IMG/VR virus record: IMGVR_UViG_3300037155_000096
DNA from: a virus
Strand: one strand, 5' to 3'
DNA: 64,000 bases
The position numbers and the translations under genes were made by a program. How positions within the stretch are numbered: the first letter of the stretch is position 1; the number at the start of each line of letters is the position of its first letter. The notes under the pieces were generated by a model, which searched no databases, was not told the DNA's origin, and saw nothing but the letters and a program-made list of their open reading frames with translations. Shown here piece after piece: positions 1 through 43,397 of the stretch.

Positions 1-121
1 TATATCAGCATCGTGTTATCGGTGATAATCACGACATAGCCATTTTCGATAACCTCATTGACGCTCTTGCCGTCCAGATCTTCCCAGTGACTTAGCACTT
101 TGTACTGATAGCTTTTGTGTC

Positions 122-571
122 TCATTCGAACTTCTCCTTTGAACCTTCCGGCTCGATATAATTTTTACCATCATAAATAATTGCATTCTCAATGTCGCCC
201 TCACGTACAGGGCATAATATCCACTTGCTTGGATTTTCAGATTGTCGTTCAAGGCATATATCGAGCGGATAGATAATATGGTCAAACATGCCTTCAGGCA
301 GATCATCCAATGTTTTGTTCATCACCTGATAACCAATAACCGGGCGTTTTCTGAACATCGGATCGATATATTCGATGTTGAACTTCTTCAGGGCATCTTC
401 GTAATCGTCCGGATGAATGTTCTTGTTCTCGATATTGAGTTCATTCAGGAATATTTCGCTTAACTCAGCCGTCTGATCTCCATCAAGCGGTTCGCCATCC
501 CATAGAAAAGCTAAATCCCTAGCACATTGCTGTATCACCTTATACGCCTTTCGAGTGTAAAGTCCTTTCAT
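122..571 (-). CDS. Hypothetical phage protein
   Basis: 149-aa ORF, 4-nt overlap with the upstream ORF; no recognisable motif. Confidence 0.6.
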   Translation of the reverse strand: MKGLYTRKAYKVIQQCARDLAFLWDGEPLDGDQTAELSEIFLNELNIENKNIHPDDYEDALKKFNIEYIDPMFRKRPVIGYQVMNKTLDDLPEGMFDHIIYPLDICLERQSENPSKWILCPVREGDIENAIIYDGKNYIEPEGSKEKFE

Positions 572-1041
572 TTTTTCAAGTCCTTATTACGTTTCGGATA
601 GTTAAACAAACCTTTCGGCGGAGTGGAATCCCTGACTTTTTTGCCACCATTCAGGACGTACGGATCTATCATTTGAAACGTAGATTCCGTTAAATCTTTC
701 ATCGTCCTTTCATTCATAAGATATGCCATACCAAGCTCCCAATTCATTTTTGCTGAGCGTGTGGCAAGTTCAGATCTTTTAATAAACGTCATAATCTCAG
801 CGTTCTTGCATGACTGCCAGAAGCCGATGTTACCATCTTCATACAGGAAGGCGTTGATAACACCCTGAAGTGTCATCTTCTGCTTGTAATATTGCTTCAA
901 CGCCTGAAGAACTATGCAAGTCTTATCATGTGTACGATGCCACTTAAACAGGTGGGCCAGGAATAATTTCTCCTCATAGGGAAGAACCTCAAATTTCGTA
1001 GTGAATTCCGCTGGCAATTTATCTTCTGCCATAATCATCAT
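568..1041 (-). CDS. Hypothetical phage protein
   Basis: 157-aa ORF in a co-oriented cluster; no recognisable motif. Confidence 0.6.
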   Translation of the reverse strand: MMIMAEDKLPAEFTTKFEVLPYEEKLFLAHLFKWHRTHDKTCIVLQALKQYYKQKMTLQGVINAFLYEDGNIGFWQSCKNAEIMTFIKRSELATRSAKMNWELGMAYLMNERTMKDLTESTFQMIDPYVLNGGKKVRDSTPPKGLFNYPKRNKDLKK

Positions 1042-1285
1042 CCTCGTTTTCTAATACCATTGGCAGATCAGACAATAACTGTCTGTACGTTTGTTCGGAA
1101 GAAAGTCCATCTGCATAATAATTTCTTAACTGTTCGTCATTAAATTGTTCGAGATACTGAGCGCCATCGACACACTGGACATCCTCACAATATTTGAGAA
1201 CTTCCATGTACCAGTCGAGATACTTGTCGCTATCCCGCCGAAGGTTTCGTTTTTCGTTTATTTTCGCTGTTTCCATTTGTCCCAT
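1019..1285 (-). CDS. Hypothetical acidic phage protein
   Basis: 88-aa ORF in a co-oriented cluster. Confidence 0.55.
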   Translation of the reverse strand: MGQMETAKINEKRNLRRDSDKYLDWYMEVLKYCEDVQCVDGAQYLEQFNDEQLRNYYADGLSSEQTYRQLLSDLPMVLENEDDDYGRR

Positions 1286-1311
1286 AATGTATCTTATGTA
1301 AACTTACAATT

Positions 1312-1446
1312 CTATTGTGACTGCAAACACTCCCCTTCTCGCGCTACAATTTTCTCCACTTTCTTATGACCGTAAACTATCAAAGTAGCCCACGGCTCGT
1401 ACAATGTTAGTACCCGCATCTTATCCCTAAATGTTAGTACCCGCAT
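1312..1446 (-). pseudogene. Truncated ASCH-domain gene (N-terminal stump)
   Basis: Manual translation MRVLTFRDKMRVLTLYEPWATLIVYGHKKVEKIVAREGECLQSQ*. LTLYEPWATLIVYGHKKVE matches the ASCH N-terminal motif (LS/T-x-x-QPWA-x-LI-x-x-G-x-K-x-x-E); similarity stops immediately after it. Confidence 0.6.
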
Positions 1447-1456
1447 CTTATCCCTA
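1403..1456 (+). repeat. Perfect 27-bp tandem duplication (2 copies)
   Basis: aatgttagtacccgcatcttatcccta at 1403-1429 and 1430-1456; covers the RBS and start codon of the ASCH stump. Confidence 0.95.
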
Positions 1457-1535
1457 ATTGGTTATAAAATTGTTGTATGATTTACTTTCAAATCCCGTGC
1501 TAAGAAAAAATAAAGGCAGACCGGAATTTCACCAA

Positions 1536-1742
1536 TCACTTAATTTCCTTATAAAGTATCATAGCTGAGAAATACTCCCACGTACAGACTGCTCCTTTAT
1601 ATATCCCTATGGCATACTTGATATCCAATACTTCTACGATTGTCTCTTCATCGAGCCATTCCTGTACGGCATTTCCTAAGTTCTCAGCCGAAGCCATCGT
1701 AATTGTATGAATCTTAATTTCATTCGATTTCGTTGGAATCAT
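1536..1742 (-). CDS. Small protein, possibly Cse60/DUF2758-like
   Basis: IKIHT...LGNAVQEWL...VLDIKY pattern recalls this family; 68 aa. Confidence 0.4.
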   Translation of the reverse strand: MIPTKSNEIKIHTITMASAENLGNAVQEWLDEETIVEVLDIKYAIGIYKGAVCTWEYFSAMILYKEIK

Positions 1743-2218
1743 GACGGTACTTCTTTATCCTTAGCAAGTATTGGCAGTTCGACTTCCTTTACAGGAATAG
1801 AGAACTGGTTTGCCAGAAACTGTTTGAGCGAATCTACGCTTCCATCAGCCTCCATGAATTCGTCATATACCTTTTCGAAGGTTGCTTTACCAGCATCAAA
1901 ATCATTGAGAGCCTTCACTACCCTGCAATCCTTTGGCTTATGCTCCCCATGCCATAGTCGAATATAATCGATAATCTCATTGGACTGGTCTTCCTCGAAG
2001 ATAACTCCCTGATAGTTCTCGTCTCCGAGTGGCTCCCCGAAGAATCCCACCAAATCATTGGCAAATTTCTCTACTGCTTCCTTATCCGGACCTTTATACG
2101 TAGCAATGCCCTCCCCTGTCGCCAGAGAATATACATCCACTTCGTTTATTTCGCCGTCAAGAACTCTCTGAACTACGATTGTTTCATCGTTATACTTGTA
2201 ATGCGCTGAGGACATCAT
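1739..2218 (-). CDS. Hypothetical phage protein
   Basis: 159-aa ORF, 4-nt overlap with the downstream gene. Confidence 0.6.
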   Translation of the reverse strand: MMSSAHYKYNDETIVVQRVLDGEINEVDVYSLATGEGIATYKGPDKEAVEKFANDLVGFFGEPLGDENYQGVIFEEDQSNEIIDYIRLWHGEHKPKDCRVVKALNDFDAGKATFEKVYDEFMEADGSVDSLKQFLANQFSIPVKEVELPILAKDKEVPS

Positions 2219-2243
2219 GCTAATACCTTCCTTTTAATTTCAT

Positions 2244-2519
2244 TTAATCATCTACCGTGACAGCAAAATGGCTTACACTCCATCCTATCGTCTCAAACAT
2301 TTGCTTCAGTAATGATTCGATTTTACATTTTGTTGATTCATTCGTATCATCTTCCGGATCATTCATGATTTTGGTTAGGACACTAACCTCATATATCCTC
2401 TGGTTTGTGCCGTCATTCAGTGGATCTCCCGTCTCCCAGACATTATATCCTGCTATTCTATCCAGAACATCACTATCAATCTCATCGAGTTTGAAAAATG
2501 CTATTTTACCGAAAGTCAT
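2244..2519 (-). CDS. Hypothetical phage protein (start revised to MTFGKIAFF)
   Basis: The ATG at 2519 overlaps the upstream stop (ATGA, 2516-2519), so it is preferred over the track start at 2582. Confidence 0.6.
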   Translation of the reverse strand: MTFGKIAFFKLDEIDSDVLDRIAGYNVWETGDPLNDGTNQRIYEVSVLTKIMNDPEDDTNESTKCKIESLLKQMFETIGWSVSHFAVTVDD

Positions 2520-3238
2520 GATGTCGCCTTTAATTTTAGTTTTACTTTTCCGCCTACAGCCATAACTACCTGCGTCGTGCAAAGGTGTGGCTCTTTTAAT
2601 ACTATCGGGATCTCTTTATGACAGAATTCACATGGTATCGTTACTTCATCCCCGCCTTTCATATCAGGGGAAGAAATATCTTCCACACCATGAATAAAAT
2701 CAGGTACTATTTCCAAAAACTTTGCCGGAGCCTTATTCTCCATGCTTATCTTATCTCCAGCCCAATGTCCGACCAAATACATACTGGAGCCGTGGTAATC
2801 TCCGCTGCCTCTATTATTCCCACTCGCTGTTAGCAGCGGAAGCGGATGTATCTGTAATCCGTCTATTTCTGCTGGAACCGCCTCAAGATCTACGTACTCC
2901 TGTTTTGTGTGGTTCACAATGAACATGAATCCAGATATAGAAGTTGCTTTTACTTTTCTTGGTGTCTTAAATTTCCTGGCTATATGATTCAGGTTGGTCG
3001 CTTTTTCCGCAGCACGGATCTCCGCCACCGTCATGAAGGCGTCGGCATCACCATAATCGCCAGCCCAAACGAGCGGTTGCTTATACCAGCCGTGTTTCGG
3101 TCTGAGCAGAACCTCCACCGCCGCAACGAATTCATTATCGACGAACCCATGCTCCATCAGTTTACCGCCATTCTCATAATCATGCGGGAACATTGCTTCC
3201 CGTTTCTCGGGATTTACCGCTATATATGTCTGTCCCAT
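2516..3238 (-). CDS. Hypothetical phage protein
   Basis: 240-aa ORF; coupled to neighbours on both sides; C-terminal CxxC...H. Confidence 0.65.
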   Translation of the reverse strand: MGQTYIAVNPEKREAMFPHDYENGGKLMEHGFVDNEFVAAVEVLLRPKHGWYKQPLVWAGDYGDADAFMTVAEIRAAEKATNLNHIARKFKTPRKVKATSISGFMFIVNHTKQEYVDLEAVPAEIDGLQIHPLPLLTASGNNRGSGDYHGSSMYLVGHWAGDKISMENKAPAKFLEIVPDFIHGVEDISSPDMKGGDEVTIPCEFCHKEIPIVLKEPHLCTTQVVMAVGGKVKLKLKATS

Positions 3239-3372
3239 TATCTCGTCCTCTCTAATTTATCCATTAACTCTTTGGCATACTTCTCGATTTCTTCTTCAGG
3301 AACACACATTGCTTTAAGAAATGCAAGAAAGTCATCCCAACGTTCTTCAATATAAATCTTTACTAAATCCAT
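3238..3372 (-). CDS. Small hypothetical protein (44 aa, not in the ORF track)
   Basis: MDLVKIYIEERWDDFLAFLKAMCVPEEEIEKYAKELMDKLERTR*; fills the gap exactly, with a TAATG overlap at 3238. Confidence 0.6.
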   Translation of the reverse strand: MDLVKIYIEERWDDFLAFLKAMCVPEEEIEKYAKELMDKLERTR

Positions 3373-3374
3373 TA

Positions 3375-3788
3375 TTATCTCATCGGATATTCTTTATCGT
3401 ACAATTCAAACTGATACTCATTCGAGATTTTATACGCACTTTTCGTCCCCCAAAACGTTAATCTTTCGAATAGCCAGTTTATCTGCCTCTCGTTCCTGGG
3501 CAGCGGAACCTGCAGGGGACACTGAGTCGCCTTATTAAAACAGCCCTTATGGTCAATAAACAGCGTGACCGGACCTTCATCTTCTCTTTTGCCCAGGAAT
3601 CCATAGATTCCATGACCGGTAATCTTATAGCAGTCATCGCCTTCGGAGACCACATCATAGTTCGCTTTTTTGAGCATGGCCACCATCTCATCGATAGTGA
3701 CTTCTACATTCCGTTTCCTTGGTTCAAACGATTTCGGATCCAATTCAAAATCCACAGCATCCAGATCTTTGCCATTTTTATACATCAC
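3375..3788 (-). CDS. Hypothetical phage protein
   Basis: 137-aa ORF, 4-nt overlap with the HD gene. Confidence 0.6.
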   Translation of the reverse strand: MMYKNGKDLDAVDFELDPKSFEPRKRNVEVTIDEMVAMLKKANYDVVSEGDDCYKITGHGIYGFLGKREDEGPVTLFIDHKGCFNKATQCPLQVPLPRNERQINWLFERLTFWGTKSAYKISNEYQFELYDKEYPMR

Positions 3789-4309
3789 GCTGACTCCCTC
3801 ACTTCCAATTCTTTACTCATATACATATCCAGAAGCGCCCACATTTCCTGATGCAGATCTCCGAACTGCAGCATTGCCTTGAATAGCGCATACTGTTTCT
3901 TATACGAGTTGAAAAACTTCTCGTTATGAAACGCCCAACTTCTACGGACATTGGCAATTCTATCAGCAAGTTTCAGCTGAACAGCCTTCTGACATTCCGC
4001 AGTTTTGGTATACGTTCTCACCAGTGACTCCTTCTTGTCCTTTCCAGGCTCATTCGTAACTCGCCATACGATTTCAGAGACTTCATCGCCGAAATACTTG
4101 GCTATCAGCTTCCGAGTCACCTGAGTGTCCTCTACGGCGTCATGGAGCCAGGCAGCAACCAATATCGGTTCGTCCGTTACACCAAATTCGTCCAGAAGGA
4201 TCTCATAAACGTTGTTCAGATGTTCCGAGTAAGGCAACCCATCCCCGTATTTCTGTTTAGCATGGAGCATTTCTGCCACCATTTTAGCATTTTTAATATT
4301 TTCTGTCAT
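3785..4309 (-). CDS. Stand-alone RelA/SpoT-type HD-domain hydrolase (small alarmone hydrolase / Mesh1-like)
   Basis: Motifs H..QKY..G.PYSEHL, AAWLHDAVEDT and KLADRIANVR; no synthetase domain. Confidence 0.85.
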   Translation of the reverse strand: MTENIKNAKMVAEMLHAKQKYGDGLPYSEHLNNVYEILLDEFGVTDEPILVAAWLHDAVEDTQVTRKLIAKYFGDEVSEIVWRVTNEPGKDKKESLVRTYTKTAECQKAVQLKLADRIANVRRSWAFHNEKFFNSYKKQYALFKAMLQFGDLHQEMWALLDMYMSKELEVRESA

Positions 4310-5160
4310 ACTACATCCTTTGGATACTCCCGAATCTTTAGATGCTCGGGAAAATCCTCTATATTTCTAATTACTTTATCTTCCCCTGATAATTGCTTAA
4401 CGAATAGCGGCGTCTTGTTCATCTGGCAAGCCTCCCTGATGTCGTTTATCCAACTTACCGGACAATCCCTTCTCGAAGTACCAGATTCGCAGCCGACTAC
4501 CACCCAATCTATGCGCTGTAGCCCGCCGCTTCTGGGGAAATCTTTCGCCATTTTCAGACATCCACCGCACCTGCATAATGTATCGCCCAATGTTTTGGAT
4601 TGCAGGTCGATTCTGGATAACATTGGCTCAATACTTACCCACCTTAAAGCCACCGGCATCTGCATGAGTATCAGAATTCTTTTGTCTGCCATTTCCTGAT
4701 CCTCAGCCGTAACACCGAACCATAAATTCTTCATTCCGGATTTGTACCATGCTTCAAAACTTGAACTTGCAACATGCTTGGTCATCCAATCCGCCAGATA
4801 CGCATAAAACTCCAAAGCTCTCTCAGGTCTTTTCGTAAGCACCTGAAACGTATGCTTCGGACATCTTGCCATCGTAGCATACACTCTGAAAATAAATTCA
4901 AACGGGACGTCCTCGTGAAATAAATCAGACATCGAATTAACAAAAATCTTTCGTGGCTTCTGCCACCTGTAAGGGATCTCCAATTTATCGGTGTGGCACT
5001 TGACATCCGTAAATTTCCTGTCGTCCTTGCCGAACTCGCCGAGCCTTCTTTTGGCATAATTCTCTGCATAGCAGTGTTTACAGCCGGCACTTACCTTGTC
5101 GCAACCAGTAACGGGATTCCAGGAACTGTTAGTCCATGCAATTTCGCTTTTACTTCCCAT
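4306..5160 (-). CDS. DUF5131 / phage Gp37Gp68 family protein (radical-SAM-like)
   Basis: SKSEIAWTNSSWNPVTGCDKVSAGCKHCYA, IFVNSMSDLFHE, FQVLTKRPER, VSIEPML, IDWVVVGCESG. Confidence 0.9.
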   Translation of the reverse strand: MGSKSEIAWTNSSWNPVTGCDKVSAGCKHCYAENYAKRRLGEFGKDDRKFTDVKCHTDKLEIPYRWQKPRKIFVNSMSDLFHEDVPFEFIFRVYATMARCPKHTFQVLTKRPERALEFYAYLADWMTKHVASSSFEAWYKSGMKNLWFGVTAEDQEMADKRILILMQMPVALRWVSIEPMLSRIDLQSKTLGDTLCRCGGCLKMAKDFPRSGGLQRIDWVVVGCESGTSRRDCPVSWINDIREACQMNKTPLFVKQLSGEDKVIRNIEDFPEHLKIREYPKDVV

Positions 5161-5164
5161 TATT

Positions 5165-5728
5165 TTACATGCACTCCTTTATAACTTCGCTTTCAATTTC
5201 TTTCATGGATGTCCACGGAATCATGGTTTCTCCCTGCTGATCTATCAGATAAATCGGAATCTTTAATTCCTGAGCTATTCTGATTTCGCTATCAACGCCA
5301 CCCGACGTATCCCATCCTGGCATGGTTACAATAATCATTTTGCTCGATACGCTTAAATACGCCCGGCAGAAGTTCTCCCAGAACTGCCAATCAGTCGGTA
5401 GAGAATAAGCAAATGCAATCGAGTGTGCATGAGCTATCGGCGAAAATATCGTGTAGCCTTTGTTCATAAGTACCCCAGCTACTCTACTTGCGTCCATCGC
5501 TCGTTTATCCCTGACCATTGAATCCGGATCTGAGTACGGAGAGGACAAATAAATCAAGGGTTTACCGAACTCCTGTTCCAATCCTTTCAGTTTCTCTTCT
5601 TCAAACACAGGCATTATTTTTTTCTCCCCATGAAAATCTTCACGTTGTTCCATTGTAACTGAACAAATGCCACACCGCCGAGCCTTATTAAATCCAAAAG
5701 GTTCACATGGGCAAGGTGGTCCGGGCAC
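5165..5728 (-). CDS. DUF1937-like / nucleoside 2-deoxyribosyltransferase-fold protein
   Basis: IYLSSPYS, FSPIAHAH, PGWDTSGGVDSEIRIAQELKIPI; true start may be downstream (MPVFEEE). Confidence 0.75.
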   Translation of the reverse strand: MPGPPCPCEPFGFNKARRCGICSVTMEQREDFHGEKKIMPVFEEEKLKGLEQEFGKPLIYLSSPYSDPDSMVRDKRAMDASRVAGVLMNKGYTIFSPIAHAHSIAFAYSLPTDWQFWENFCRAYLSVSSKMIIVTMPGWDTSGGVDSEIRIAQELKIPIYLIDQQGETMIPWTSMKEIESEVIKECM

Positions 5729-5837
5729 AATCCGAGATAGTGCATTATCGATTCGATCATTGTCGTAACTTGATTTGTTAAAAAATATGTTATGAGGGAT
5801 AACTTACAAGAAGCGTGCTAAGATTTTTTGTGCCGTT

Positions 5838-6404
5838 TTATTCATTTCCGCCTTCAAATATCCAGATTCTATTTCCGGATGCCTCTCCCCTACTGACAAC
5901 CCATTGCGGATCTATCGTAGTGAATCGGTGCGTTTCCAAAATTCGTTTTGTTCCATGGATCTTCTCGTGCCCAATCAGGATATATTTCTTGACGTGCTTC
6001 AATATATTTTCTTCATCGACACCGTCAACCATTGAGGTACCTTCATCCGCCTTCGTTTTGTAAAGCTGCGTAACCCATGAAGCCACAACCGTCCATGGGT
6101 GATATCTTCTAACTGCATCCATAACCTCTAAATGGTCTACCTCTTGCGGATAATTGATCGTCGGCTGTCCTATCATTTTATAATAAGCTGCAATCTCAGG
6201 CTTCCTCTGAATCATGGCATCCGTCATCGGTATATTCAGAAACCTTCCAAGGTTGCCAGCTCCCGCACCTATCTCATTCGAGCGAATCGAATCCTTCAGA
6301 AGTTCCTGAAGCTGATCGATTAGTTCAACCGTCGGCAGAACCAGATGTCCTTGTTTCTTAGACGACCCATCGAAGGAATAAATATAATAAAAGTAGGTTC
6401 TATT
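5838..6404 (-). pseudogene. 5'-truncated class I SAM-dependent methyltransferase-like gene
   Basis: The frame of ORF 5838-6227 stays open upstream to a stop at 6405-6407 and encodes ...GHLVLPTVELIDQL...NEIGAGAGNLGRFL (SAM-binding motif at 6252-6275). There is no in-frame ATG upstream of 6227, and the sequence turns AT-rich at about 6375. Confidence 0.6.
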
Positions 6405-6652
6405 TTACCGACTGTTTAAATGGGGAAAAATGAATATGAGTTGGTTTATATGATAAATTTAGAGTGAAAGGAACAGCCGATGTCACAAGAATGTTCATAT
6501 TTAATCTATAACCCTTTTTATTGTCTAAGGATTGAATTTCGAAGGAATATCAGTTAACTTTATTATAATTATTGACAGTTGTTAGTAAGAATATGAGCGA
6601 CTAAGATTCCAAGTTAATTTTATTAGAGTCATATAATTGTTAATGGATAATT

Positions 6653-7297
6653 ATGAAAAAAATATTATTTAGTGTATTTCCTTTATTCTTCCTTTTTGGC
6701 TGCTCAAGTTATGTTTCAAGGTATTTTTTTAATTATGAGCAAATCGATAATTCAATAAAACATTTAGTTCAAAAAAATGAGATTTATGCAGGGTATAATC
6801 AATATTATGAAGATGATTTAATTAAACTGCACCTTGATTGTGAGCCGATGGGTATTAGGTTTTATCTAATTAACAAAACAAATAATACACTGAATATTAT
6901 ATGGGATAGCGTAAAGGTATATTCAGAATTTCTGAAAAATAAACCAGTTTCAATCATGCACACAAATAAAACTCAGGATAATATTGTAATTCCAGATCCT
7001 TCCGCATTAGATTTTATTGAAAAAAGTACTCTTATAAAATTGAGAGAAGAAGATCGTTTATCAGTTATTAAAACGTCAATTATTTTGGCAAACCACACTT
7101 GGATGGATGAGATTCAGTTCAATCAAAATGATTATTTACTTCCATATCAGTTTAGCAATAAAGATTCACTTAATTATAAATCCAATGGTGTAATTGGTAA
7201 AAAGATTAAATTATTACTGCCTTTGAAAACAAAAGAAGAAATAATCAATTATGCTTTCGTTTTTACAGTGAAAGAATTTCAAATTTTATCAAAATGA
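6653..7297 (+). CDS. Predicted lipoprotein of unknown function
   Basis: MKKILFSVFPLFFLFGC: positive N-terminus, hydrophobic core and lipobox LFGC; its stop overlaps the Argonaute start (ATGA, 7294-7297). Confidence 0.75.
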   Translation: MKKILFSVFPLFFLFGCSSYVSRYFFNYEQIDNSIKHLVQKNEIYAGYNQYYEDDLIKLHLDCEPMGIRFYLINKTNNTLNIIWDSVKVYSEFLKNKPVSIMHTNKTQDNIVIPDPSALDFIEKSTLIKLREEDRLSVIKTSIILANHTWMDEIQFNQNDYLLPYQFSNKDSLNYKSNGVIGKKIKLLLPLKTKEEIINYAFVFTVKEFQILSK

Positions 7298-9300
7298 GTG
7301 AATACAGAATCAATAAAGTCAATTTCAAAATTCTGAATCCCAAAATAAGAGTTTGGGTTTCAGGAAACCAGCTACCAGATTTTCAGAAAAGAAGAATTGA
7401 ACTTTTCAAAGAAGTGAATATTCCTGCAACTTTAAGTGAGCAGCCCTACATTTATCTATCGTTTCAATCTCATGTAGATGCTATAGAAGCAGAATTAAAT
7501 CTTGAAACAAAAAAATATTTTCTGAAACCGTATATTGATTTTCTTCTGACGAACTATTTTGAGAATAAGAATTTAACAACACGAAAAACCTTTATACAAA
7601 GCATTCAGATTTGGAATTATATTTCGCAAGACAACAAGAAAAAAACTTATGACCGCTTTTCAATAAGGCAATTGGGAACATTGCACTTGCACAAGTTGGA
7701 GTTACTCATTTCATACGATGGTAAATCACTTGTTTCAAGACTACCTTTGTCTGAAAGAGAGTTTAGATCACCTATCTCAAAATACTTTCAGGGTAATAAA
7801 ATTTATGAGACTAAAAGAACCCCAATTTCAGATACAAGTGAGGCCTTTCCTATTTTAAGTATTCCAATGCGAAAGGAAATGGATATTCCATTTGAAGGAT
7901 TCGCAACTAAGAATACATACCTTGAATATTATAAAAAAATTTCTGCCTTTTACGATATTCACTTGAAAGGGAAAACGATTGCGGACAACATCACTTTCTA
8001 TTCAGAAGCATTTGAGGAGGTTGATGAAATAAAAATAATGAGAGTAAAAAAGGTTTCTAACTACTTAAAATTTAATGGTAACAACGACTACAATATTTAT
8101 AGTGGACTGAAAAATTATGGACCTTATAAGGTACCGCAGACTGACAATCTGCGTTTCATTTTTATATACAAGGCAAATGAAATCCATCGTAAAGCAGCTA
8201 ATCAACTTTACATTGCCTTGAAGAATGGAATAAGCAATTTCCCAGGACTAAAAGATTATGTGAAAGTAAATTTTGAATTGGCACAGGAGAATAAAATTAT
8301 TCTGGAAACAAACGATCCTGCATCCGAATTAGCAGATAAACTTGAACACTATAACAAACATGAAGGATTAAAGTATTTTGCAATCTATCTTACAGACCAC
8401 AAACGATTCGAAGATTTGGAAAATAACGAAGAAGAATATTATAAAGTGAAATATTCATTGCTTCAAAAAGAAATTCTATCTCAATTTATTTATTACAAAA
8501 ATATTGACAGTTCTAGTTTTATATTTCACTTGCCCAACATTGCTGTTGCAATACTCGCTAAGTTGGGAGGTATCCCTTGGAAGTTAGATACAGTTTCTTC
8601 TGCAAAAATGATAGTTGGGTTTGGCGTGAAACGATTAGATGACAATACTTACTTAGGCAACACACTATGTTTTAAAGATGATGGAGAATTTTACAAATTT
8701 GAAACTTATCAGAGAGCAAACATTCAAACAATCGGAGAAGCACTTCGTGATAGTATCAATAATGTGATAAATCAGGAACACTTCACACCTGACAAACTGA
8801 TAATTCATTACTACAAAACTTTGAGTGATGAAGAGGCAGAGGAAATTGAAAATGTTTTGAAGGAAGTCAATTTGAACATTCCTTTTATCGTACTGACTAT
8901 AAACGACACCAAGAGCAAGGACTATTTGTTTTTTGATGTTGCTTCAAAAGATATAATGCCAGTAAGCGGAACAATAATTGAAATAAAAAATAAGACAGAA
9001 TATCTTTTGGCAAACAACGAGAGGCACAGTGAAACACAAATTTATTCAATCAGAAAATTTCCGTTCCCTCTGAAAATAAAAGTGAACAAACCAACCAACA
9101 CACTTTACGATGTGTTTGACATTAAGGAACTGATTGACCAAGTTTATAGTTTTTCAAGAATCTACTGGAAAAGTATTAACCAAGTTAGCTTACCTGTTAC
9201 GATTGCATACTCAAAAATTGTGGCTGACTTGGCAGCACATTTCCCTGAACACCGTTTGCCTGAAAAAGATATTGCTCACTCTAATCTTTGGTTTCTATGA
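7294..9300 (+). CDS. Long prokaryotic Argonaute, catalytically inactive PIWI (long-B-like)
   Basis: 668 aa; MID motif YYKVK..LL...ILSQFI; PIWI hallmark NIAVAILAKLGGIPWKL; MIVGFGV in place of IGID; KLIIHYYK in place of IIHRDG; C-terminal SRIYWKS...LPVTIAYS. Confidence 0.9.
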   Translation: MSEYRINKVNFKILNPKIRVWVSGNQLPDFQKRRIELFKEVNIPATLSEQPYIYLSFQSHVDAIEAELNLETKKYFLKPYIDFLLTNYFENKNLTTRKTFIQSIQIWNYISQDNKKKTYDRFSIRQLGTLHLHKLELLISYDGKSLVSRLPLSEREFRSPISKYFQGNKIYETKRTPISDTSEAFPILSIPMRKEMDIPFEGFATKNTYLEYYKKISAFYDIHLKGKTIADNITFYSEAFEEVDEIKIMRVKKVSNYLKFNGNNDYNIYSGLKNYGPYKVPQTDNLRFIFIYKANEIHRKAANQLYIALKNGISNFPGLKDYVKVNFELAQENKIILETNDPASELADKLEHYNKHEGLKYFAIYLTDHKRFEDLENNEEEYYKVKYSLLQKEILSQFIYYKNIDSSSFIFHLPNIAVAILAKLGGIPWKLDTVSSAKMIVGFGVKRLDDNTYLGNTLCFKDDGEFYKFETYQRANIQTIGEALRDSINNVINQEHFTPDKLIIHYYKTLSDEEAEEIENVLKEVNLNIPFIVLTINDTKSKDYLFFDVASKDIMPVSGTIIEIKNKTEYLLANNERHSETQIYSIRKFPFPLKIKVNKPTNTLYDVFDIKELIDQVYSFSRIYWKSINQVSLPVTIAYSKIVADLAAHFPEHRLPEKDIAHSNLWFL

Positions 9301-10499
9301 ATCTGGTTAAGCTATTTGAAAATACGGTATTCCTATTGGGTGCTGGTGCATCACAAGATGCAGGTTGCCTGATGTCAAGTAGTATGCTTAATGAATTGAA
9401 CAAAGCGATAAACGATATTGCTTCTGATGATGTAGTATATGGGAGTTACAAGGAAGGATTCAAAGAACTTTACAGAGTGATAAAACCTTCCCTAGAATAT
9501 CAGGCAGAACTTAAAAGAATTATTGCGGATAAAAAAGATTTGTATTCACCGAACATTGAAGATTATATTCTAATACTCCGCAAAATACTGAATAAGGATT
9601 TGATAATTCCAGAACCACTTGTTGGAAGTTGGAGTGATAAACTTTTATTATTAGAAATAAAATATACAAATCTATGCAAGCAGTATTTGAATTTTATTTA
9701 TCACTGCGTCATAAAATGGCTAACACCGCCAAACTATAAAGCTGCAACTGATTTGTTGCTTCCTGTAAGAACTTTGCTTGAGCAAACAACTAATGAAGAA
9801 TATTATATCAATTTCTTCACACTGAATTATGATTTAATTTTTGAAAAGGTTTTTAATTCGGCAGAAGCAAAACCATTGAACAATGGTTTCTCAAACAATG
9901 TTTGGGACACTATAAGTTTTGATGTTGAACAAACAAAAATTAACTTGTATAAAATTCACGGTTCTTTGGACTGGTATTCAGAGGAGGATACTACTCATTC
10001 ACTTCCTGACTACGAAATTGCTTTCAATGCACTTCAACCAGATGAGAGAAAACCGCATTTGATTTTAGGATATGAAACAAAATTATTTTCAGTTGACCCA
10101 TTTTTCACCTTGCTACAAAAGTTCATTACAAAATTAAAAGAAGCAAATCTTGTTGTAGTCATCGGATATAGCTTCTTTGATGCTTACTTAAATAACTTGT
10201 TAATAAAGTTTCTGAACAGCAGTGAAAATAAAAAACTTTTTATTGTGGATCCCCACTTTTCTAATCAGGAAAATCCAGCAGAATCATTTACAGAATATTT
10301 GAAACTGATTCAGACAGACACTTCTTCATTGAACATTGACAACTACACAACATTACCATCCTCAAAAGTTTCATTTTTTGCTTCTGAGAATTCTAAAATG
10401 TCTGGAGCAAAGGAATTTTATACAGAGTTTTTTGAGAACAAATGTGAGAAGTTGAAAGCCATTTATGCTGAGTTAGCAAAACAAGATGAACCGTTCTAA
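9297..10499 (+). CDS. SIR2-like (SIR2_2) NAD+-consuming effector
   Basis: VFLLGAGASQDAG, FFTLNYDLIFE, LYKIHGSLDW, VVIGYSFFDAYLN; the ATG at 9297 overlaps the Argonaute stop (ATGA). Confidence 0.9.
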   Translation: MNLVKLFENTVFLLGAGASQDAGCLMSSSMLNELNKAINDIASDDVVYGSYKEGFKELYRVIKPSLEYQAELKRIIADKKDLYSPNIEDYILILRKILNKDLIIPEPLVGSWSDKLLLLEIKYTNLCKQYLNFIYHCVIKWLTPPNYKAATDLLLPVRTLLEQTTNEEYYINFFTLNYDLIFEKVFNSAEAKPLNNGFSNNVWDTISFDVEQTKINLYKIHGSLDWYSEEDTTHSLPDYEIAFNALQPDERKPHLILGYETKLFSVDPFFTLLQKFITKLKEANLVVVIGYSFFDAYLNNLLIKFLNSSENKKLFIVDPHFSNQENPAESFTEYLKLIQTDTSSLNIDNYTTLPSSKVSFFASENSKMSGAKEFYTEFFENKCEKLKAIYAELAKQDEPF

Positions 10500-10677: not shown

Positions 10678-12120
10678 TTAGTTTATTTGATTTTCTTGAA
10701 GAAAAAACGAAAAATTATATGGCGGTTGATTTTGAGAATAAAGTTTCAGTAACTCCAGTTTCTCAGAATGGGAAATCTCGGTTAAGCGATAAAGTTCATT
10801 AAAGGTCAGTGTAATGTGGTTAGATAATTCAATGTTTCGAGGATATACTTTGCACACTCGCATTAAAATATCAAACCGTGAAGAAAAATACCAATTAGCA
10901 CAAATTGCTTGTAATGTTTCTTCGAATACCAATAGTACAGGATGGATCTTATATTTTATATCGGGATTTAATGAAGCAACTGAATAAAAGGTTTTGGGTT
11001 CATTGTTAATCCTGTCTATCTTTTTTACTTGTTGCATAACGCCTTCTTTCAAAACGAACCTATCATTCAACTTCTGATAAAATTGTACAATATCATCTTC
11101 ATATAATGTTGCGAGGTTAAGGCATGTAGACTTTATCTCAAATAAATAGATATCAGTACCTTGGACTAAACCCATATCCCCATACTCATAGGATTTTGTA
11201 GCTATTTTAATCTCCTTTATTGAGTCAGAGATAAAAATACTTCTTATTAAGTCTTTTATCACAGGCTCAACAATATCAATTCCAAATTTTGGTTTGAACT
11301 CAATTGGAAAGGATTGGAATAATTCTGAATAAACTAATCGGAATGTCATGTCAAATAGGTTATTAAAATCTGTTGGAATTAAATCATTATTTATTTTTAT
11401 CAAAGGATATTTTTTCATGAAAAATAAATCTTGTGGAGGGTTAATCTTCTGCTTTCTTAGTGTCCATTCCTTATGTAGATCATCCTCTTTTATTGCAGCG
11501 AATCTTTCTAATAGATTAAAAATAGTTTTACTCGAATGTTTTTTTAATTCGTCACAAAGATCATCTAGCTTAATTCCATATTTATCGAAAATAATCGAAT
11601 TATAGGAAGAATCTTCAAGAGCTTTTATTTTCTCATTGAATTTATTGAAGAGATCAAAAGTCCCTCTTAAATCTGAATTCACCTGGGTAAATTGTATTGA
11701 TTTAATACTACTATATAATAATTTTTTCCCTGTGGATTGATTTTTTTGTGTGAGTTCTAAATCCGCTAATACTTGATTTATAAAAATAAACAATAAAAAT
11801 GTAAGGTAAGGATTGAATTCTTTAGCTGCCGAAAAAGAATCAGGTGGAATTGAACTTAAATATTGAAAGCATGCATTCATTGCTTGCTTATGGAATACGA
11901 TTATATTTCTATTTATTGGGATATTTAGAATCTCATATTGGATTTCCAAAATATCTTCAAGATCTCCTGCTACTGCAAACTTATTAGCTAAATGACCAAG
12001 AAAACGAACCCATTGTTCCCTGCTATTGCTCATTAAGATATTATTAATATTGTCATGACAGCACTGAACACTAACATTTTTCCCAAATTCATCATGATAG
12101 GTGTAATATTTTTTTATCAT
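10678..12120 (-). CDS. Hypothetical protein with a C-terminal PD-(D/E)xK nuclease-like motif
   Basis: YGDMGLVQGTDIYLFEIKS fits D...E-x-K; 480 aa; very AT-rich. Confidence 0.55.
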   Translation of the reverse strand: MIKKYYTYHDEFGKNVSVQCCHDNINNILMSNSREQWVRFLGHLANKFAVAGDLEDILEIQYEILNIPINRNIIVFHKQAMNACFQYLSSIPPDSFSAAKEFNPYLTFLLFIFINQVLADLELTQKNQSTGKKLLYSSIKSIQFTQVNSDLRGTFDLFNKFNEKIKALEDSSYNSIIFDKYGIKLDDLCDELKKHSSKTIFNLLERFAAIKEDDLHKEWTLRKQKINPPQDLFFMKKYPLIKINNDLIPTDFNNLFDMTFRLVYSELFQSFPIEFKPKFGIDIVEPVIKDLIRSIFISDSIKEIKIATKSYEYGDMGLVQGTDIYLFEIKSTCLNLATLYEDDIVQFYQKLNDRFVLKEGVMQQVKKIDRINNEPKTFYSVASLNPDIKYKIHPVLLVFEETLQAICANWYFSSRFDILMRVCKVYPRNIELSNHITLTFNELYRLTEISHSEKLELLKLYSQNQPPYNFSFFLQENQIN

Positions 12121-12245
12121 ATGATTTACTCTGTTTTGAACAGTTCTATCCTTAACTATGATAGTAAAAATATAACATTATTTTGAATTCGAAGAATTTG
12201 CTTTGAAAAAATTATCTGCACAACAAAACTGCCCCTGCTTTCGAA

Positions 12246-12338
12246 CGACTAGTTCTGGGGCACGCGGATATTAAGACAACAGAAATTTATACTCACCTTC
12301 AGGAGAATAATTTAAGTGATTCCGTAAATTTACTATAA
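12246..12338 (+). pseudogene. C-terminal stump of a tyrosine recombinase/integrase
   Basis: Translates RLVLGHADIKTTEIYTHLQENNLSDSVNLL*, i.e. the LGH-x3-TT-x-Y motif with the catalytic Tyr; in-frame stop about 40 nt upstream and no start codon. Confidence 0.8.
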
Positions 12339-12340
12339 GT

Positions 12341-12736
12341 TTAATAATCCCAAAAAACAGTTACTGCAAGATTCGGGTATTTATCAAATGTAAACTGCTT
12401 TGGTATATAGATATCAACAATTGCTTTGTTTTTGTTCCAATCAACAGTATCATACCTATATGTATGGGAATGATCCGAAGTGAATTTCATATTTTCTTTA
12501 ATAGGTTGTAATGCTCTTGCTGGGTTAATCCCGAGCTCTATATTTGTCCAATACTGTATAGTATCATGTTTACCTTTCGCTATTCTAACAGTAATAAATT
12601 TAGGTGTTGGTGTGGGTACTCTCCATTTAAGTATGTAGACATAATCAGTTCTTTTTCCAACAGTAATAGTCCACTTATAAGTATTATCAGTATCACTATC
12701 ATATTTTAACTGGTAGGACAATTCATTTGGCATCAT
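12341..12736 (-). CDS. Hypothetical beta-rich protein
   Basis: 131-aa ORF; no motif recognised. Confidence 0.5.
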   Translation of the reverse strand: MMPNELSYQLKYDSDTDNTYKWTITVGKRTDYVYILKWRVPTPTPKFITVRIAKGKHDTIQYWTNIELGINPARALQPIKENMKFTSDHSHTYRYDTVDWNKNKAIVDIYIPKQFTFDKYPNLAVTVFWDY

Positions 12737-25525: not shown

Positions 25526-26620
25526 ATGAAATTAAATGAAATTACTATTGTTTTAGACCAGCTCTTACTTGACCCAAATAATCCAAGATTTGCTGATATA
25601 TCAGATGATACTTTAAATATTCCTCGTGAGAGGTATATAGAAGAAGCAATCCAAAAACAAGCTTATGACAAAATGATGAATCCTAAGTTTGATGTTATTT
25701 CTCTTGCGAACTCAATAATGACTGTAGGCTTCTATCCGGTTGATAAAATAGTTACTTCGAAAATTGATACAAGTAATTATGTTGTTATTGAAGGGAATAG
25801 AAGAACGGCTGCCTTAAAATATATATTAAGGCAGCATGAATTGGGTCAAACTACTCTTAGTGCTGAGGAAATTGCTGATTTATCCAACATCAGTATCATG
25901 GTTGTTGACGAACAAGAAGAACAGCTTGGTTACATTGGTAAAATAATTCAAGGGATTAGAAATGTTAGCGGTATTAAAGAATGGGAGGCATTTCAAAAAG
26001 CACAATTTATTAATGATATGATTGACAAAGGTAAAGAACCTGGAAATATTTCTAAAATGATCGGCATGCAGGTCAAAGAAATAAATAGATACTATAGAAC
26101 TTACCAAGTAATGTTGAATTTTAAAAGAGATGAGGAGTATGGATCAAAATGGAAACCAAATTACTTCAGTTATTTTGATGAAATATTAAAGAAACCAGCC
26201 TTGAGAGAATTTTTAGGTTGGAATCCAGACGATTTTATTTTTGAAAACATTAGTAATCTTAAAAGATTATATGACTGGATCTTACCAGATGATGATAAGA
26301 ATTCAACTATTAATGATGCTAAAGAAGTTCGGAGATTGCCAGAACTTATTTATGATCATACAGCTTTGACATATTTAGACGATAAAAACCTTCAAAAAGC
26401 AATTAATTATATCGAGCAAAAGAACTTTAACACGACTGGAATATCAATTACTGAATGCATATCAAGAATTCATTCGGCTATCGATGGCTTTAAAAATCTG
26501 ATTGCTGAGAGTTTAGAAAATGAAATTAATGATGAAGAAATTGATGAAATTGAAAAGGGGATTAATGATATGAAAACACAATTAAGCCGAGTAAAGACAT
26601 TAAGGACAAATGGACAATAA
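25526..26620 (+). CDS. ParB/sulfiredoxin-fold N-terminal domain protein
   Basis: LLLDPNNPRF and VVIEGNRRTAALK motifs; helical C-terminus. Confidence 0.75.
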   Translation: MKLNEITIVLDQLLLDPNNPRFADISDDTLNIPRERYIEEAIQKQAYDKMMNPKFDVISLANSIMTVGFYPVDKIVTSKIDTSNYVVIEGNRRTAALKYILRQHELGQTTLSAEEIADLSNISIMVVDEQEEQLGYIGKIIQGIRNVSGIKEWEAFQKAQFINDMIDKGKEPGNISKMIGMQVKEINRYYRTYQVMLNFKRDEEYGSKWKPNYFSYFDEILKKPALREFLGWNPDDFIFENISNLKRLYDWILPDDDKNSTINDAKEVRRLPELIYDHTALTYLDDKNLQKAINYIEQKNFNTTGISITECISRIHSAIDGFKNLIAESLENEINDEEIDEIEKGINDMKTQLSRVKTLRTNGQ

Positions 26621-27332
26621 CCTATTTGTAAATATTTTACAAAATACTGATAGAATAGAGACAGAATCTCTGTTAAACAAATATTATCAAATAAAAGGCC
26701 TTAATATTTTTGATTCTGCTGAAATGGCTCAAAATAATTTAAATCAATTTGTTGATGATTGTAATGCAGAAATAAAATACTGCCGAAACAAGAACATACC
26801 TTCTATATTCTTAAATGTAACAAATAATATATTAAATGTTAATCGGGATTATTTTTTAATTATGAATATTAAGGAAGATTTATTAAATCTAACCTGGGAG
26901 CAATTTGAGGATTTTGCATCTATTTATATTGAAAAAACATTTGGAACTTTAGATACATGGGTTTCCCAGCGTACAAGAGATGGTGGTGTGGATTTTACTG
27001 CAAGAATTCCTTTCAAAAGTAATTATTCGCAAAATATTTATGGTTTTATTGAATTTTATGGTCAAGCTAAAAAATATGAAGCAAATGTTGGTCGTGTTGA
27101 AATTGATAAATTTACAGCTTATGCAAATAGACAAAAAAGAGGAAATACATTTCCAGCTCAAATATTTTGTATACTAACTACTTCTGACTTTAATATTGAT
27201 GCCCAAAAAGAAATAAAAGCCAACTCTTTTTTATCCTTTAATGGTTTACAAATGGCCCAATTAATTTATTCTTACCTAAGTAACAACACTGAAAACTTAA
27301 ATCCCTTTGCGCAATTTGGTATATCCTTGTGA
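26610..27332 (+). CDS. Mrr-family (type IV-like) restriction endonuclease domain protein
   Basis: WEQFEDF, RTRDGGVDF, YGQAKKY (D...QxK), VGRVEIDKF, LTTSDF; 11-nt overlap with the ParB-fold gene. Confidence 0.8.
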   Translation: MDNNLFVNILQNTDRIETESLLNKYYQIKGLNIFDSAEMAQNNLNQFVDDCNAEIKYCRNKNIPSIFLNVTNNILNVNRDYFLIMNIKEDLLNLTWEQFEDFASIYIEKTFGTLDTWVSQRTRDGGVDFTARIPFKSNYSQNIYGFIEFYGQAKKYEANVGRVEIDKFTAYANRQKRGNTFPAQIFCILTTSDFNIDAQKEIKANSFLSFNGLQMAQLIYSYLSNNTENLNPFAQFGISL

Positions 27333-35877: not shown

Positions 35878-36729
35878 TCACTTAATGAAACTACTGATTG
35901 GAACTGAGACGGAAATACCCGCCCATTTTGTGTCTGTAACTAAAAACCATGCACCAATCGCCTTATACTGGATCGTAAGACCGTAAGCTATGGAAGCTCC
36001 TGTAAGCGATACTGACTTTACCATCTCTGTGCCTGTACCGAGTAGTCCGCCGACTTTCAGATTATCTAAGAATCCGGGTTCGATGCAGTTACTAGCCGAC
36101 GGAGCAAAAAGCTTCTCATCTACTTCGGTATTCAATGTCGTCACTGTTATCCCAGGCGTCTTGGGTTCAAAGATTCCCATAACCTGCAAGGTCTCGGGAT
36201 TTCTTGCTATCTTAATCTTCCCTTCCAGTGGTCTGAATTTCAGGTTCAACTTCGTGAAGCTGTTAACCGGGGCTTTCAAATCGATGACAGTAGTTCCGCT
36301 TACACCCACCATTAGAGTATCGTATTGTGGAAACGTGTACGTAGCTTTCGTACTGTCAATGGTGGTGCTGCCACCCTTTATAATAATCGCCAAATCGTTA
36401 ATTTTTAAGCCCAGTTCCTGTATGACTGCCAGTTGATATCCTTGCTTGCGTAACGATTCTCTGAGCTGCGTGTCTGTTTGCTGTTGCAAGTCATACAAGT
36501 AACTGAGTTTCTCATATTCTGTCTTACCCTGATCGTTAATTACCTGCCTCAATGAATCCAGGCTTGCCTGAAAGTTCACATTGCTTACTTTACCAGCCCG
36601 TTCTACCTCAGCCTTCAATGACTGATTCTGCTTATATAAGTAAACGCTTACCGATACCAATGCGAGGAATACACCCACCAGAATTGCTGTGGTAATAACT
36701 TTCTGTTTCAGAGTCATTGCTAAAATCAT
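35878..36729 (-). CDS. Membrane-anchored coiled-coil protein (possible spanin-like lysis accessory)
   Basis: N-terminal TM helix, coiled coil, beta-rich C-terminus; lies downstream of the endolysin. Confidence 0.45.
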   Translation of the reverse strand: MILAMTLKQKVITTAILVGVFLALVSVSVYLYKQNQSLKAEVERAGKVSNVNFQASLDSLRQVINDQGKTEYEKLSYLYDLQQQTDTQLRESLRKQGYQLAVIQELGLKINDLAIIIKGGSTTIDSTKATYTFPQYDTLMVGVSGTTVIDLKAPVNSFTKLNLKFRPLEGKIKIARNPETLQVMGIFEPKTPGITVTTLNTEVDEKLFAPSASNCIEPGFLDNLKVGGLLGTGTEMVKSVSLTGASIAYGLTIQYKAIGAWFLVTDTKWAGISVSVPISSFIK

Positions 36730-36968
36730 TTCACCCTTCCGTGCTTGGTTCCTAAAATTATTTCCGTTCCCTCTTTGTACCAGCTATGTCCGTTCTGACA
36801 TGTTCTCTCATTTATTCTGCATTTGCAGGTACCCACATATTTTTCTTTGCATTCAGGACAGTAGTCGATATTTCCAATAAGCCCCCGAGCTTCTGCTATG
36901 CGACTGGCTTGACGCCTTGTCTCAAGTGCCACTATCGTAGCAAATAATGTCTGCCTAAGTTTTCTCAT
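36726..36968 (-). CDS. Small Cys-rich (zinc-ribbon-like) protein
   Basis: YCPEC...TCKC...CQNGHSW. Confidence 0.5.
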   Translation of the reverse strand: MRKLRQTLFATIVALETRRQASRIAEARGLIGNIDYCPECKEKYVGTCKCRINERTCQNGHSWYKEGTEIILGTKHGRVK

Positions 36969-37558
36969 TTCGCGCTCTGCTGGGTTGGTTTCTGTATCGA
37001 TGTTTTCGAATATGTCACTGGCGTGAAGTACACTATTCTGAAGTAATTAGCTGGCTGTATGTATCTTGTTCTCTTATAAACTCCATCTCCGTCTGACTGA
37101 CTGCCAGCCGTACCGGAAGACGTATTCCCTTCAACCGTGGATCCACTGGATTTATTCCAATGAAGCACAAATCCTGTATGCCCGTGTATCGTAGTTCCAT
37201 GCCGGAATATGAATATGCTTCCGTCGGGTACTTGTTTAACTCCGATAAGAACATCTTTCGCTGCGATACTGGTCTTGGTTATGTAATTCACCGCCAGACC
37301 GGATCTCATCTTGGGCAAATCGACTTGCGCAGTTGTCAGATTAAAACCGACAAACGCTCCACACCAAGAGTCTCCCTTATGGAGTCCTACCGAGTGAAGG
37401 AACATTTCTACTGCCACACCATCATTATGCCCGGTCTTTTCCTTTACGCCGACAAATGATAATGCGGACTGAATGTGCTTAGCCTGTCCGAACGTCGGAT
37501 TAGGAAGAAGCGATACAAGCAGCAGCAAGAATACAATTCGACATGAAAAATATCGCAT
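36965..37558 (-). CDS. CHAP-domain endolysin with a predicted signal peptide
   Basis: VGVKE..GHNDG, SWCGAFV (catalytic Cys), HGHTGFV (His), TVEGNT; hydrophobic N-terminus ending TFG-QA. Confidence 0.85.
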   Translation of the reverse strand: MRYFSCRIVFLLLLVSLLPNPTFGQAKHIQSALSFVGVKEKTGHNDGVAVEMFLHSVGLHKGDSWCGAFVGFNLTTAQVDLPKMRSGLAVNYITKTSIAAKDVLIGVKQVPDGSIFIFRHGTTIHGHTGFVLHWNKSSGSTVEGNTSSGTAGSQSDGDGVYKRTRYIQPANYFRIVYFTPVTYSKTSIQKPTQQSAK

Positions 37559-37787
37559 ATGCTATCGGTTCCTTTGTTATTAACGCCATCGTGTCTACTT
37601 CAGGACATGCGAAATGGTCAAACGCCCATACGATTGTCACTGCTATGACATACTTAAAAATGCCTACTGCAAACGAACTGTATTCGATTGCATAACTGAA
37701 CGTGAACCATACTCCCAGACCGGAGATTAAGCCCATTATCAGAAACGTCCTGAGTGCCGCAAATGCTTCCTTATTAAATGCTTTCAT
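37500..37787 (-). CDS. Putative holin (about 3 TM helices)
   Basis: 95 aa, hydrophobic segments, immediately upstream of the endolysin. Confidence 0.6.
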   Translation of the reverse strand: MKAFNKEAFAALRTFLIMGLISGLGVWFTFSYAIEYSSFAVGIFKYVIAVTIVWAFDHFACPEVDTMALITKEPIAYAIFFMSNCILAAACIASS

Positions 37788-37795
37788 TACCTATC

Positions 37796-38137: not shown

Positions 38138-38139
38138 TT

Positions 38140-38835: not shown

Positions 38836-38987
38836 GGTGATTTCCTTTCGGCAGGGCGTACTATCTTAATCTTATCGCTATTCATCCCAAACCCACTTTC
38901 TGATCTCTGCTAATCGGACTTTACATTACCTCATCTACTTTACATTCTCATCTATTCCGACTTCACCATAGAATTACACAACGTGAG

Positions 38988-39019
38988 CAAATTAAATACT
39001 ATAAGAGCCTGTTACAACG
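38988..39019 (-). promoter_or_regulatory. Candidate promoter CGTTGTAAC-N16-TAATTTG upstream of the GAF-lysis operon
   Basis: TTGTAA and TAATTT separated by exactly 17 nt; same motif and spacing at 44073-44104. Confidence 0.55.
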
Positions 39020-39057
39020 GTCACGCCCCCTTTTAAGCGTCATTATGGACATTTCGC

Positions 39058-41177: not shown

Positions 41178-41178
41178 C

Positions 41179-43377: not shown

Positions 43378-43397
43378 GTGCTTCCTCTTTATAAATT

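Follow-up and report, generated by a model that had tools for sequence, protein, structure and literature searches.

A probable two-gene BPAS copy, an inactive long Argonaute with a SIR2 protein, located behind a lipoprotein gene in a phage-like genome

The window, a 64,000-nucleotide stretch of IMG/VR virus record IMGVR_UViG_3300037155_000096, contains a prokaryotic Argonaute (pAgo) gene followed by a SIR2 gene and immediately preceded by the gene of a predicted lipoprotein. The pAgo and SIR2 genes are best explained as a two-gene copy of the BPAS system (long-B prokaryotic Argonaute plus the Sir2 protein bAgaS), with the lipoprotein gene as a chance neighbour rather than a third component (probability of about 0.85). 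In BPAS the pAgo gene lies upstream of a SIR2_2 gene, and complex formation and NAD+ depletion have been tested for GbBPAS (Song et al., Nat Commun 2023, PMC10620215). An inactive long-B pAgo paired with a Sir2 protein in an abortive infection scheme, as proposed in the initial annotation, agrees with this published system.

Organization of the locus

The three open reading frames share a strand and are chained by two ATGA stop/start overlaps, an arrangement noted initially and confirmed from the ORF coordinates and the junction sequences (Table 1).

Table 1. Features of the lipoprotein-pAgo-SIR2 locus (coordinates of the window).
Feature	Coordinates	Strand	Details
AT-rich intergenic region 5' of lipoprotein gene	6228-6652	+	GC 34%; no ORF >=60 aa past 6323
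Lipoprotein ORF	6653-7297	+	214 aa
Lipoprotein/pAgo ATGA stop/start overlap	7294-7297	+	...TCA AAA TGA; pAgo ATG = 7294-7296
pAgo ORF	7294-9300	+	668 aa
pAgo/SIR2 ATGA stop/start overlap	9297-9300	+	...CTA TGA; SIR2 ATG at 9297
SIR2 ORF, ATG start	9297-10499	+	400 aa
SIR2 ORF, TTG start	9288-10499	+	403 aa

The gene calls of two related loci (L022 and L023) also use the ATG start of the 400-aa SIR2 product and contain the same 4-nt pAgo/SIR2 overlap, and in other relatives the SIR2 match likewise starts within the end of pAgo. The lipoprotein/pAgo overlap says little on its own. Every pAgo relative starts with ATGAG (ATGAGT in the window), so that the frame one base on contains a TGA and an upstream ORF read in that frame stops on it; the overlap thus arises automatically, and the TGA stop of the lipoprotein gene is supplied by the pAgo start. 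Lipoprotein relatives terminate with TAG or TAA, either at the position of 7294-7297 or one codon later. Overlaps of 4 nt are present at 8 of the 51 same-strand junctions in the window, and overlaps of any length at 20, according to a crude gene call. The GC content of the lipoprotein gene is 26.4%, and those of the pAgo and SIR2 genes are 32.6% and 32.3%, respectively.

The intergenic region 5' of the lipoprotein gene would be the sole gene-free space able to house a promoter for 6653-10499. A sigma-70 promoter scan of this region gave a site count not above chance, the Bacteroidota-type TAnnTTTG (-7) motif was searched for at the locus and not found, and a terminator scan gave chance-level results, with no terminator between the lipoprotein and pAgo genes. 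Since the genes overlap by 4 nt and leave no intergenic space, co-transcription of the lipoprotein gene with pAgo-SIR2, together with translational coupling in this genome, is likely.

The locus heads a low-GC defence island that includes a BREX type 1 system, within a phage-like genome of about 185 kb. The nearest virus record overlaps the window only from position 36640 onward, and the locus is outside the overlap.

The pAgo and SIR2 proteins

The 668-aa protein matches the PADLOC pAgo model over its full length (4e-180; model positions 2-674 of 674) as well as Pfam Piwi (1e-16), and its closest PDB sequences are AfAgo (4e-19) and RsAgo (8e-11). Its AF2 model (pLDDT 88.3) has RsAgo as the top fold match (TM 0.68, E 2e-29), and matches full-length Argonautes along the whole chain, not the short MID-PIWI form. 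At the three DEDX positions covered by a motif alignment the catalytic residues are replaced: GxDV by GFGV (G444), RDG by HYY (Y506) and YAH/D by YSK (K641); the best alignment partner is the inactive AfAgo. MID residues Y382, K386, Q397 and K423 are invariant across 52 homologues. As judged from its sequence, the protein is a catalytically inactive pAgo of the long-B type and the putative sensor of the BPAS pair, the long-B placement being drawn from its nearest solved relatives (the long-B AfAgo and RsAgo) and from its partner, an og_44-type SIR2_2 protein. RsAgo (the long-B pAgo of Rhodobacter sphaeroides; PDB 5awh, 6d8a) and AfAgo (PDB 1w9h) similarly have no catalytic tetrad. However, RsAgo is 777 aa long and without a dedicated effector gene, whereas the pAgo here is ~110 aa shorter, SIR2-paired and ~15% identical to it.

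The downstream gene product matches Pfam SIR2_2 (3.5e-13) and PADLOC Aga_SIR2 (2.5e-57 and 1.5e-55). Counted from the TTG start, its NAD-site motifs are the glycine-rich GAGAS loop at residue 18, LNYD with its Asn at 180 and HGS with its His at 224; LNYD and HGS align with TNYD and HGS of a solved SIR2 (PDB 8w9l). It is predicted to be a bAgaS-like SIR2_2 protein and the NADase effector of the pair.

The locus shares with BPAS a dead long pAgo gene located 5' of a stand-alone SIR2_2 gene in one operon, and the retention of the SIR2 NAD-site Asn (the counterpart of GbbAgaS N155 and ThsA N112) and His; a further shared expectation, read here from the genes, is NAD+ depletion triggered by an invader. 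It differs in being a divergent Bacteroidota/Ignavibacteriota-type copy of 668 + 400 aa, in its location beside BREX in a phage-like genome, and in its 4-nt overlap with an unrelated lipoprotein gene. SPARSA (short pAgo plus SIR2-APAZ) also couples an Argonaute sensor to a SIR2 NADase and acts through abortive infection, but its pAgo is short (MID-PIWI only) and its SIR2 is APAZ-fused and encoded upstream, whereas the locus here has a full-length pAgo and a downstream-encoded SIR2_2 protein without APAZ.

By analogy with the tested GbBPAS, the slicer-dead pAgo would hold SIR2 inactive in a complex and load small guides. Recognition of invading plasmid or phage nucleic acid by pAgo would then release the NADase activity of SIR2, and the ensuing collapse of NAD+ would cause the infected cell to die or stop growing.

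Distribution of the pair and of the lipoprotein

Nine related loci with 74-90% pAgo identity were fetched for comparison, representing about 5 independent contexts. SIR2 is directly 3' of pAgo in all nine, with its start within the pAgo end. Both proteins are 66-90% identical and the overlap is kept over the nine loci, indicating purifying selection. DNA similarity to three of these loci (L001-L003) spans exactly the region from the pAgo ATG to the SIR2 stop. The genes located 5' of the pair elsewhere include an Eco57I-like methylase (L001), McrC/HsdR (L002), an IS200 transposase (L003), MazF (L015/16), and HsdS or a methylase-S fusion (L017, L022, L023/24). At its 5' end the pair overlaps its neighbour by 1 nt in L017 and is separated from it by 3 nt in L001 and by 9 nt in both L022 (following a 55-aa ORF) and L023/24; whatever the neighbour, the cassette as a rule sits tightly against it.

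The pair could also be a passenger that is decaying or silent and currently without function. That no separate promoter was found and that the pAgo of L003 is frameshifted might speak for this, but both ORFs are intact here, the MID pocket is conserved, as are the catalytic motifs of SIR2, and the selection noted above is implied across the nine loci, making this reading hardly credible.

The lipoprotein gene is absent from all nine pAgo-SIR2 loci when searched for by tblastn and with a 55-sequence family profile (E<=10), several of these loci having short flanks (0.6-2 kb). At the level of genomes, all searched as incomplete MAGs, no lipoprotein family member is present in any of the three that carry the pair, and no pAgo is found in one that carries the lipoprotein (recovered as positive control at 1e-56). 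A census of lipoprotein homologues had been set beforehand as a test of their association with the pair, and the ten checked, 27-96% identical, occupy unrelated contexts with no pAgo or SIR2 nearby; even the 96%-identical lipoprotein has different genes downstream. These contexts include a conserved housekeeping row (peptidase M1-lipoprotein-Metallophos-PBP1, also with UDG), a Mu-like prophage in which the gene is flanked by a TIR protein and a methylase, and an integrase/AbiGi island in which it adjoins a DUF4145/PD-T7-4-like gene. Other relatives are located in a toxin-antitoxin island, beside HsdR, or beside regulators and secreted proteins, such that about four of the ten have mobile or defence-type surroundings. 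The neighbours of these relatives have no homologues within the window from which the empty site might be reconstructed. An ancestral lipoprotein-BREX junction was considered and rejected, the signal being a weak tblastn match (E 2e-4) of a neighbour of one lipoprotein relative to BrxB of the window, with no PADLOC support.

Neither pAgo nor lipoprotein relatives were found in a scan of viral contigs or in the INPHARED phage collection, and the pAgos of a plasmid collection are all distant, with identities to this one of no more than 27%. The exact lipoprotein sequence is present on two contigs and a near-identical pAgo is carried by a 31.6-kb contig; the lipoprotein-pAgo-SIR2 arrangement may therefore persist in at least two samples, probably in one and the same phage. 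Nothing relevant on a pAgo partnered by a lipoprotein came up in a search of the literature.

The lipoprotein and its possible roles

The N-terminus of the 214-aa protein consists of MKK, ILFSVFPLFFLF and then the lipobox L14-F-G-C17. The LFGC motif had been recognized initially and is upheld by its family, in which C17 is invariant in 55 members and G16 nearly so. The protein is thus predicted to be a lipoprotein, with a signal peptide and a lipobox as substrate of signal peptidase II. In its structural model residues 2-12 form a helix, and the mature part is predicted to form a beta-sandwich with two helices. There is no match in Pfam, PHROG or PADLOC scans, nor anything consistent in a Pfam scan of the 55 family members. 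Foldseek returned only generic beta-sandwich matches (E>=1.8e-3), the wide VIA fold search gave an uninformative best Z of 6.9 (TRAP, PCuAC, YcdA), and an ESM Atlas search found unnamed clusters only; the family, itself unnamed, comprises about 376 clusters.

Small exported lipoproteins such as T5 Llp, TraT and Cor act in exclusion for mobile elements (phages and plasmids). These offer a possible analogy only, as no sequence or fold similarity to the 214-aa protein was found. The lipoprotein could nevertheless act by itself in the envelope, as a single-gene defence or superinfection-exclusion factor, co-transcribed with BPAS and forming a mechanistically separate layer. Such a role is the leading candidate for the protein, if a doubtful one. 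It would fit the position of the gene at the head of a defence island in a phage-like genome, the relatives in the Mu-like prophage and the AbiGi/integrase island and beside toxin-antitoxin genes and HsdR, a nearest ESM Atlas cluster that is mostly viral, and a sporadic distribution (1 of 201 genomes of one class). It fits less well with the members in the housekeeping row or beside regulators and secreted proteins, and the PADLOC, PHROG and fold searches lend it no match. An independent factor of this kind refines the chance-neighbour explanation and does not contradict it.

The initial annotation had gone further in proposing the exported lipoprotein as a third, coupled part of the system, one that would act alongside pAgo-SIR2 by sensing events at the envelope or by preventing entry. 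The shared strand, the ATGA overlap and the lack of an intervening terminator are consistent with this, and the mobile or defence-type surroundings of some relatives suggest that the family may have a defence-related role of its own. However, the proposal does not hold against the distributions: co-occurrence is lacking in both directions, among the nine close loci, the ten lipoprotein contexts and the genomes, and the closest lipoprotein precedes other genes. Of the three outcomes that the initial annotation had named as refuting it, two are observed, namely homologues in unrelated contexts and close loci without the gene. Furthermore, a lipid-anchored lipoprotein and a cytoplasmic pAgo-SIR2 would occupy separate compartments with no transmembrane relay encoded, and GbBPAS functions as two genes in E. 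coli. A three-component system is consequently very improbable, and there is just as little to be said for a lineage-specific recruitment of the lipoprotein as a real third part, for example one that relays what happens at the envelope to the sensor in the cytoplasm.

With the lipoprotein as a chance neighbour, a mobile pAgo-SIR2 cassette would have inserted immediately downstream of an accessory lipoprotein gene that was already in place. Most likely, read-through and the stop/start overlap would then let the cassette draw on the promoter of that gene and on the ribosomes that translate it.

The main value of the locus is the caution that in a compact genome a 4-nt stop/start overlap is no evidence of joint function. 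BPAS also gains a divergent copy here, carried beside BREX in a phage-like genome. The lipoprotein family could merit a domain entry. For BPAS, the locus supports a picture of a cassette poor in promoters that settles downstream of other genes, most often those for restriction.

The Argonaute-SIR2 pair

The initial annotation correctly described three open reading frames with two ATGA overlaps and a lipobox, in agreement with the ORF coordinates, junction sequence, signal and domain matches. These genes encode a lipoprotein, a prokaryotic Argonaute (pAgo) and a SIR2 protein, and are followed by further putative defence genes.

Features of the low-GC region and their coordinates in the window
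Feature	Coordinates	Strand	Details
Lipoprotein ORF	6653-7297	+	214 aa
Lipoprotein/pAgo ATGA overlap	7294-7297	+	
pAgo ORF	7294-9300	+	668 aa
pAgo/SIR2 ATGA overlap	9297-9300	+	
SIR2 ORF	9288/9297-10499	+	403 aa from TTG, 400 aa from ATG
Two genes between BPAS and BREX	10678-12736	-	480 and 131 aa
Complete BREX type 1	13137 onward		BrxA 13137, BrxB 13855, BrxC 14411, PglX 17845, PglZ 21081, BrxL 23409
PDC-M38A/PD-Lambda-5_A-like gene and Mrr-like nuclease gene	25526-27332		After BREX operon

The pAgo matches Pfam Piwi (1e-16) and, over its full length, PADLOC pAgo (4e-180), and its closest solved sequences are AfAgo (4e-19) and RsAgo (8e-11). An AlphaFold model (52 homologues in the alignment; pLDDT 88.3) matches full-length Argonautes along its entire length, RsAgo ranking first (TM 0.68, E 2e-29). 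At the catalytic positions, GFGV, HYY and YSK replace the GxDV, RDG and YAH/D of active enzymes, and the MID pocket residues Y382, K386, Q397 and K423 do not vary across pAgo homologues. The SIR2 protein matches Pfam SIR2_2 (3.5e-13) and PADLOC Aga_SIR2 (2.5e-57), and retains the glycine-rich loop, the LNYD Asn and the HGS His, which align with the TNYD and HGS motifs of a solved SIR2 (PDB 8w9l).

A BPAS system is defined as a long-B pAgo gene followed by a SIR2_2 gene; the tested prototype, GbBPAS, forms a stable complex, is activated by a plasmid with a CloDF13 origin, and depletes NAD+ in a manner dependent on the SIR2 Asn (Song et al., PMC10620215). The window's pair has all of the sequence-level characters of BPAS and is predicted to be a further member of this known class. 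The replaced catalytic motifs, full-length Argonaute fold and SIR2_2/Aga_SIR2 matches bear out the earlier prediction of an inactive long Argonaute with a SIR2 partner.

Gene neighbourhoods of the pair and of the lipoprotein

Nine loci with pAgos 74-90% identical to that of the window (L001-L003, L015-L017 and L022-L024) all have a SIR2 gene directly 3′ of pAgo that starts within the pAgo end. The genes upstream of pAgo are two Eco57I-like methylases (L001; 3-nt gap, 4997-5001), HsdR and McrBC (L002), an IS200 transposase (L003), MazF (L015/16), and HsdS or a methylase-S fusion (L017, L022 and L023/24). The HsdS-type gene overlaps pAgo by 1 nt in L017 (699), a 9-nt gap precedes pAgo in L023/24 (L023 4762-4772), and a 55-aa ORF separates the restriction-modification gene from pAgo in L022 (1987-1997). 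The cassette lies 0-10 nt behind restriction-modification genes in L001, L017 and L023, and behind the 55-aa ORF in L022; it seems to lack promoter space of its own and to ride on upstream operons. Because the HsdS end just 5′ of the pAgo ATG is conserved across L017, L022 and L023/24, the nine loci represent about five independent contexts. At the DNA level, L001-L003 resemble the window from the pAgo ATG to the SIR2 stop. In L003, from an Ignavibacteria MAG, the pAgo gene (5001-7013) is broken across several frames beside an intact SIR2 gene, reflecting either a long-read assembly error or a pseudogene.

The close lipoprotein family has 13 members, and neighbourhoods of ten relatives (27-96% identity) were compared. 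These include a conserved row of peptidase M1, lipoprotein, Metallophos, PBP1 and UDG genes, an island with integrase, DUF4145 and AbiGi, a toxin-antitoxin island, and several regulator or secreted-protein neighbourhoods. A Mu-like prophage (L018 3358-7001) carries a relative between genes for a TIR-domain protein and an N6/N4 methylase, and in L004 (6860-7501) a relative adjoins a DUF4145/PD-T7-4-like gene. The genes downstream of the 96%-identical lipoprotein encode products of 148 aa and 195 aa.

The proposal that the three genes form a new subtype is not supported by the sequence comparisons: the lipoprotein is absent from all nine pAgo-SIR2 loci (tblastn; 55-sequence family profile, E≤10), and neither pAgo nor SIR2 occurs in the ten lipoprotein neighbourhoods. 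At the genome level, no member of the lipoprotein family is present in the three genomes carrying L001-L003, and no pAgo in the genome of lipoprotein locus L013, where the lipoprotein itself was recovered as positive control (1e-56); the close family turned up in only one of 201 genomes of that class.

The junction and the lipoprotein

All pAgo relatives start with ATGAG. The next frame therefore contains a TGA, at which an upstream ORF read in this frame terminates, overlapping pAgo by 4 nt. Relatives of the lipoprotein stop with TAG or TAA at the window's stop position or one codon later, suggesting that the native stop and an intergenic spacer were lost at this junction. Overlaps of 4 nt occur at 8 of the window's 51 same-strand junctions, and overlaps of any kind at 20. 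The lipoprotein gene has a GC content of 26.4%, compared with 32.6% for pAgo and 32.3% for SIR2. The overlap probably couples expression of the lipoprotein and pAgo in this genome; it is no evidence of a shared function.

The lipoprotein has a standard signal (MKK, a hydrophobic stretch, and L-F-G-C17). In its family (P0001; alignment A4) the invariant positions are N74 and C17, the latter across 55 members; Y24, W84, H103, P190, Y200, F202 and F204 are almost invariant. The family, with 376 clusters in a profile search, consists of unnamed proteins of about 200 aa and has no Pfam entry; some longer members of 300-430 aa (P0020, P0021) carry the domain C-terminally. The predicted structure is a beta-sandwich with two helices (pLDDT 89.9), for which fold searches gave no solved structure of convincing similarity (best Z 6.9). 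Its Atlas neighbours are all unnamed, one of their clusters being largely viral. Roughly four of the ten neighbourhoods are mobile or defence islands, which makes superinfection exclusion or another stand-alone role at the envelope a reasonable guess, though one less likely than not.

Genomic setting

The phage-type genes upstream of the three-gene region are DUF5131 (phrog_2045), a deoxyribosyltransferase-like gene and an HD protein. The two genes between BPAS and BREX have no match in Pfam, PADLOC or PHROG; in Atlas they fall only in unnamed clusters, with NERD-domain proteins as a weak lead (score 0.91), and could be another defence gene pair. Lysis and baseplate genes, 98% identical to a virus record, lie past the BREX and the PDC-M38A-like and Mrr genes; the 98% identity to this nearest record (G001) spans 36640-52000, where its contig ends. 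A 185,403-bp contig carries the window's pAgo. The island (6228-27332) has a GC content of 26-36%, compared with 43-44% in the backbone (1-6227 and 29000-64000). Given this low-GC island within a phage-like backbone and the match to G001, BPAS and BREX seem to be phage-borne cargo.
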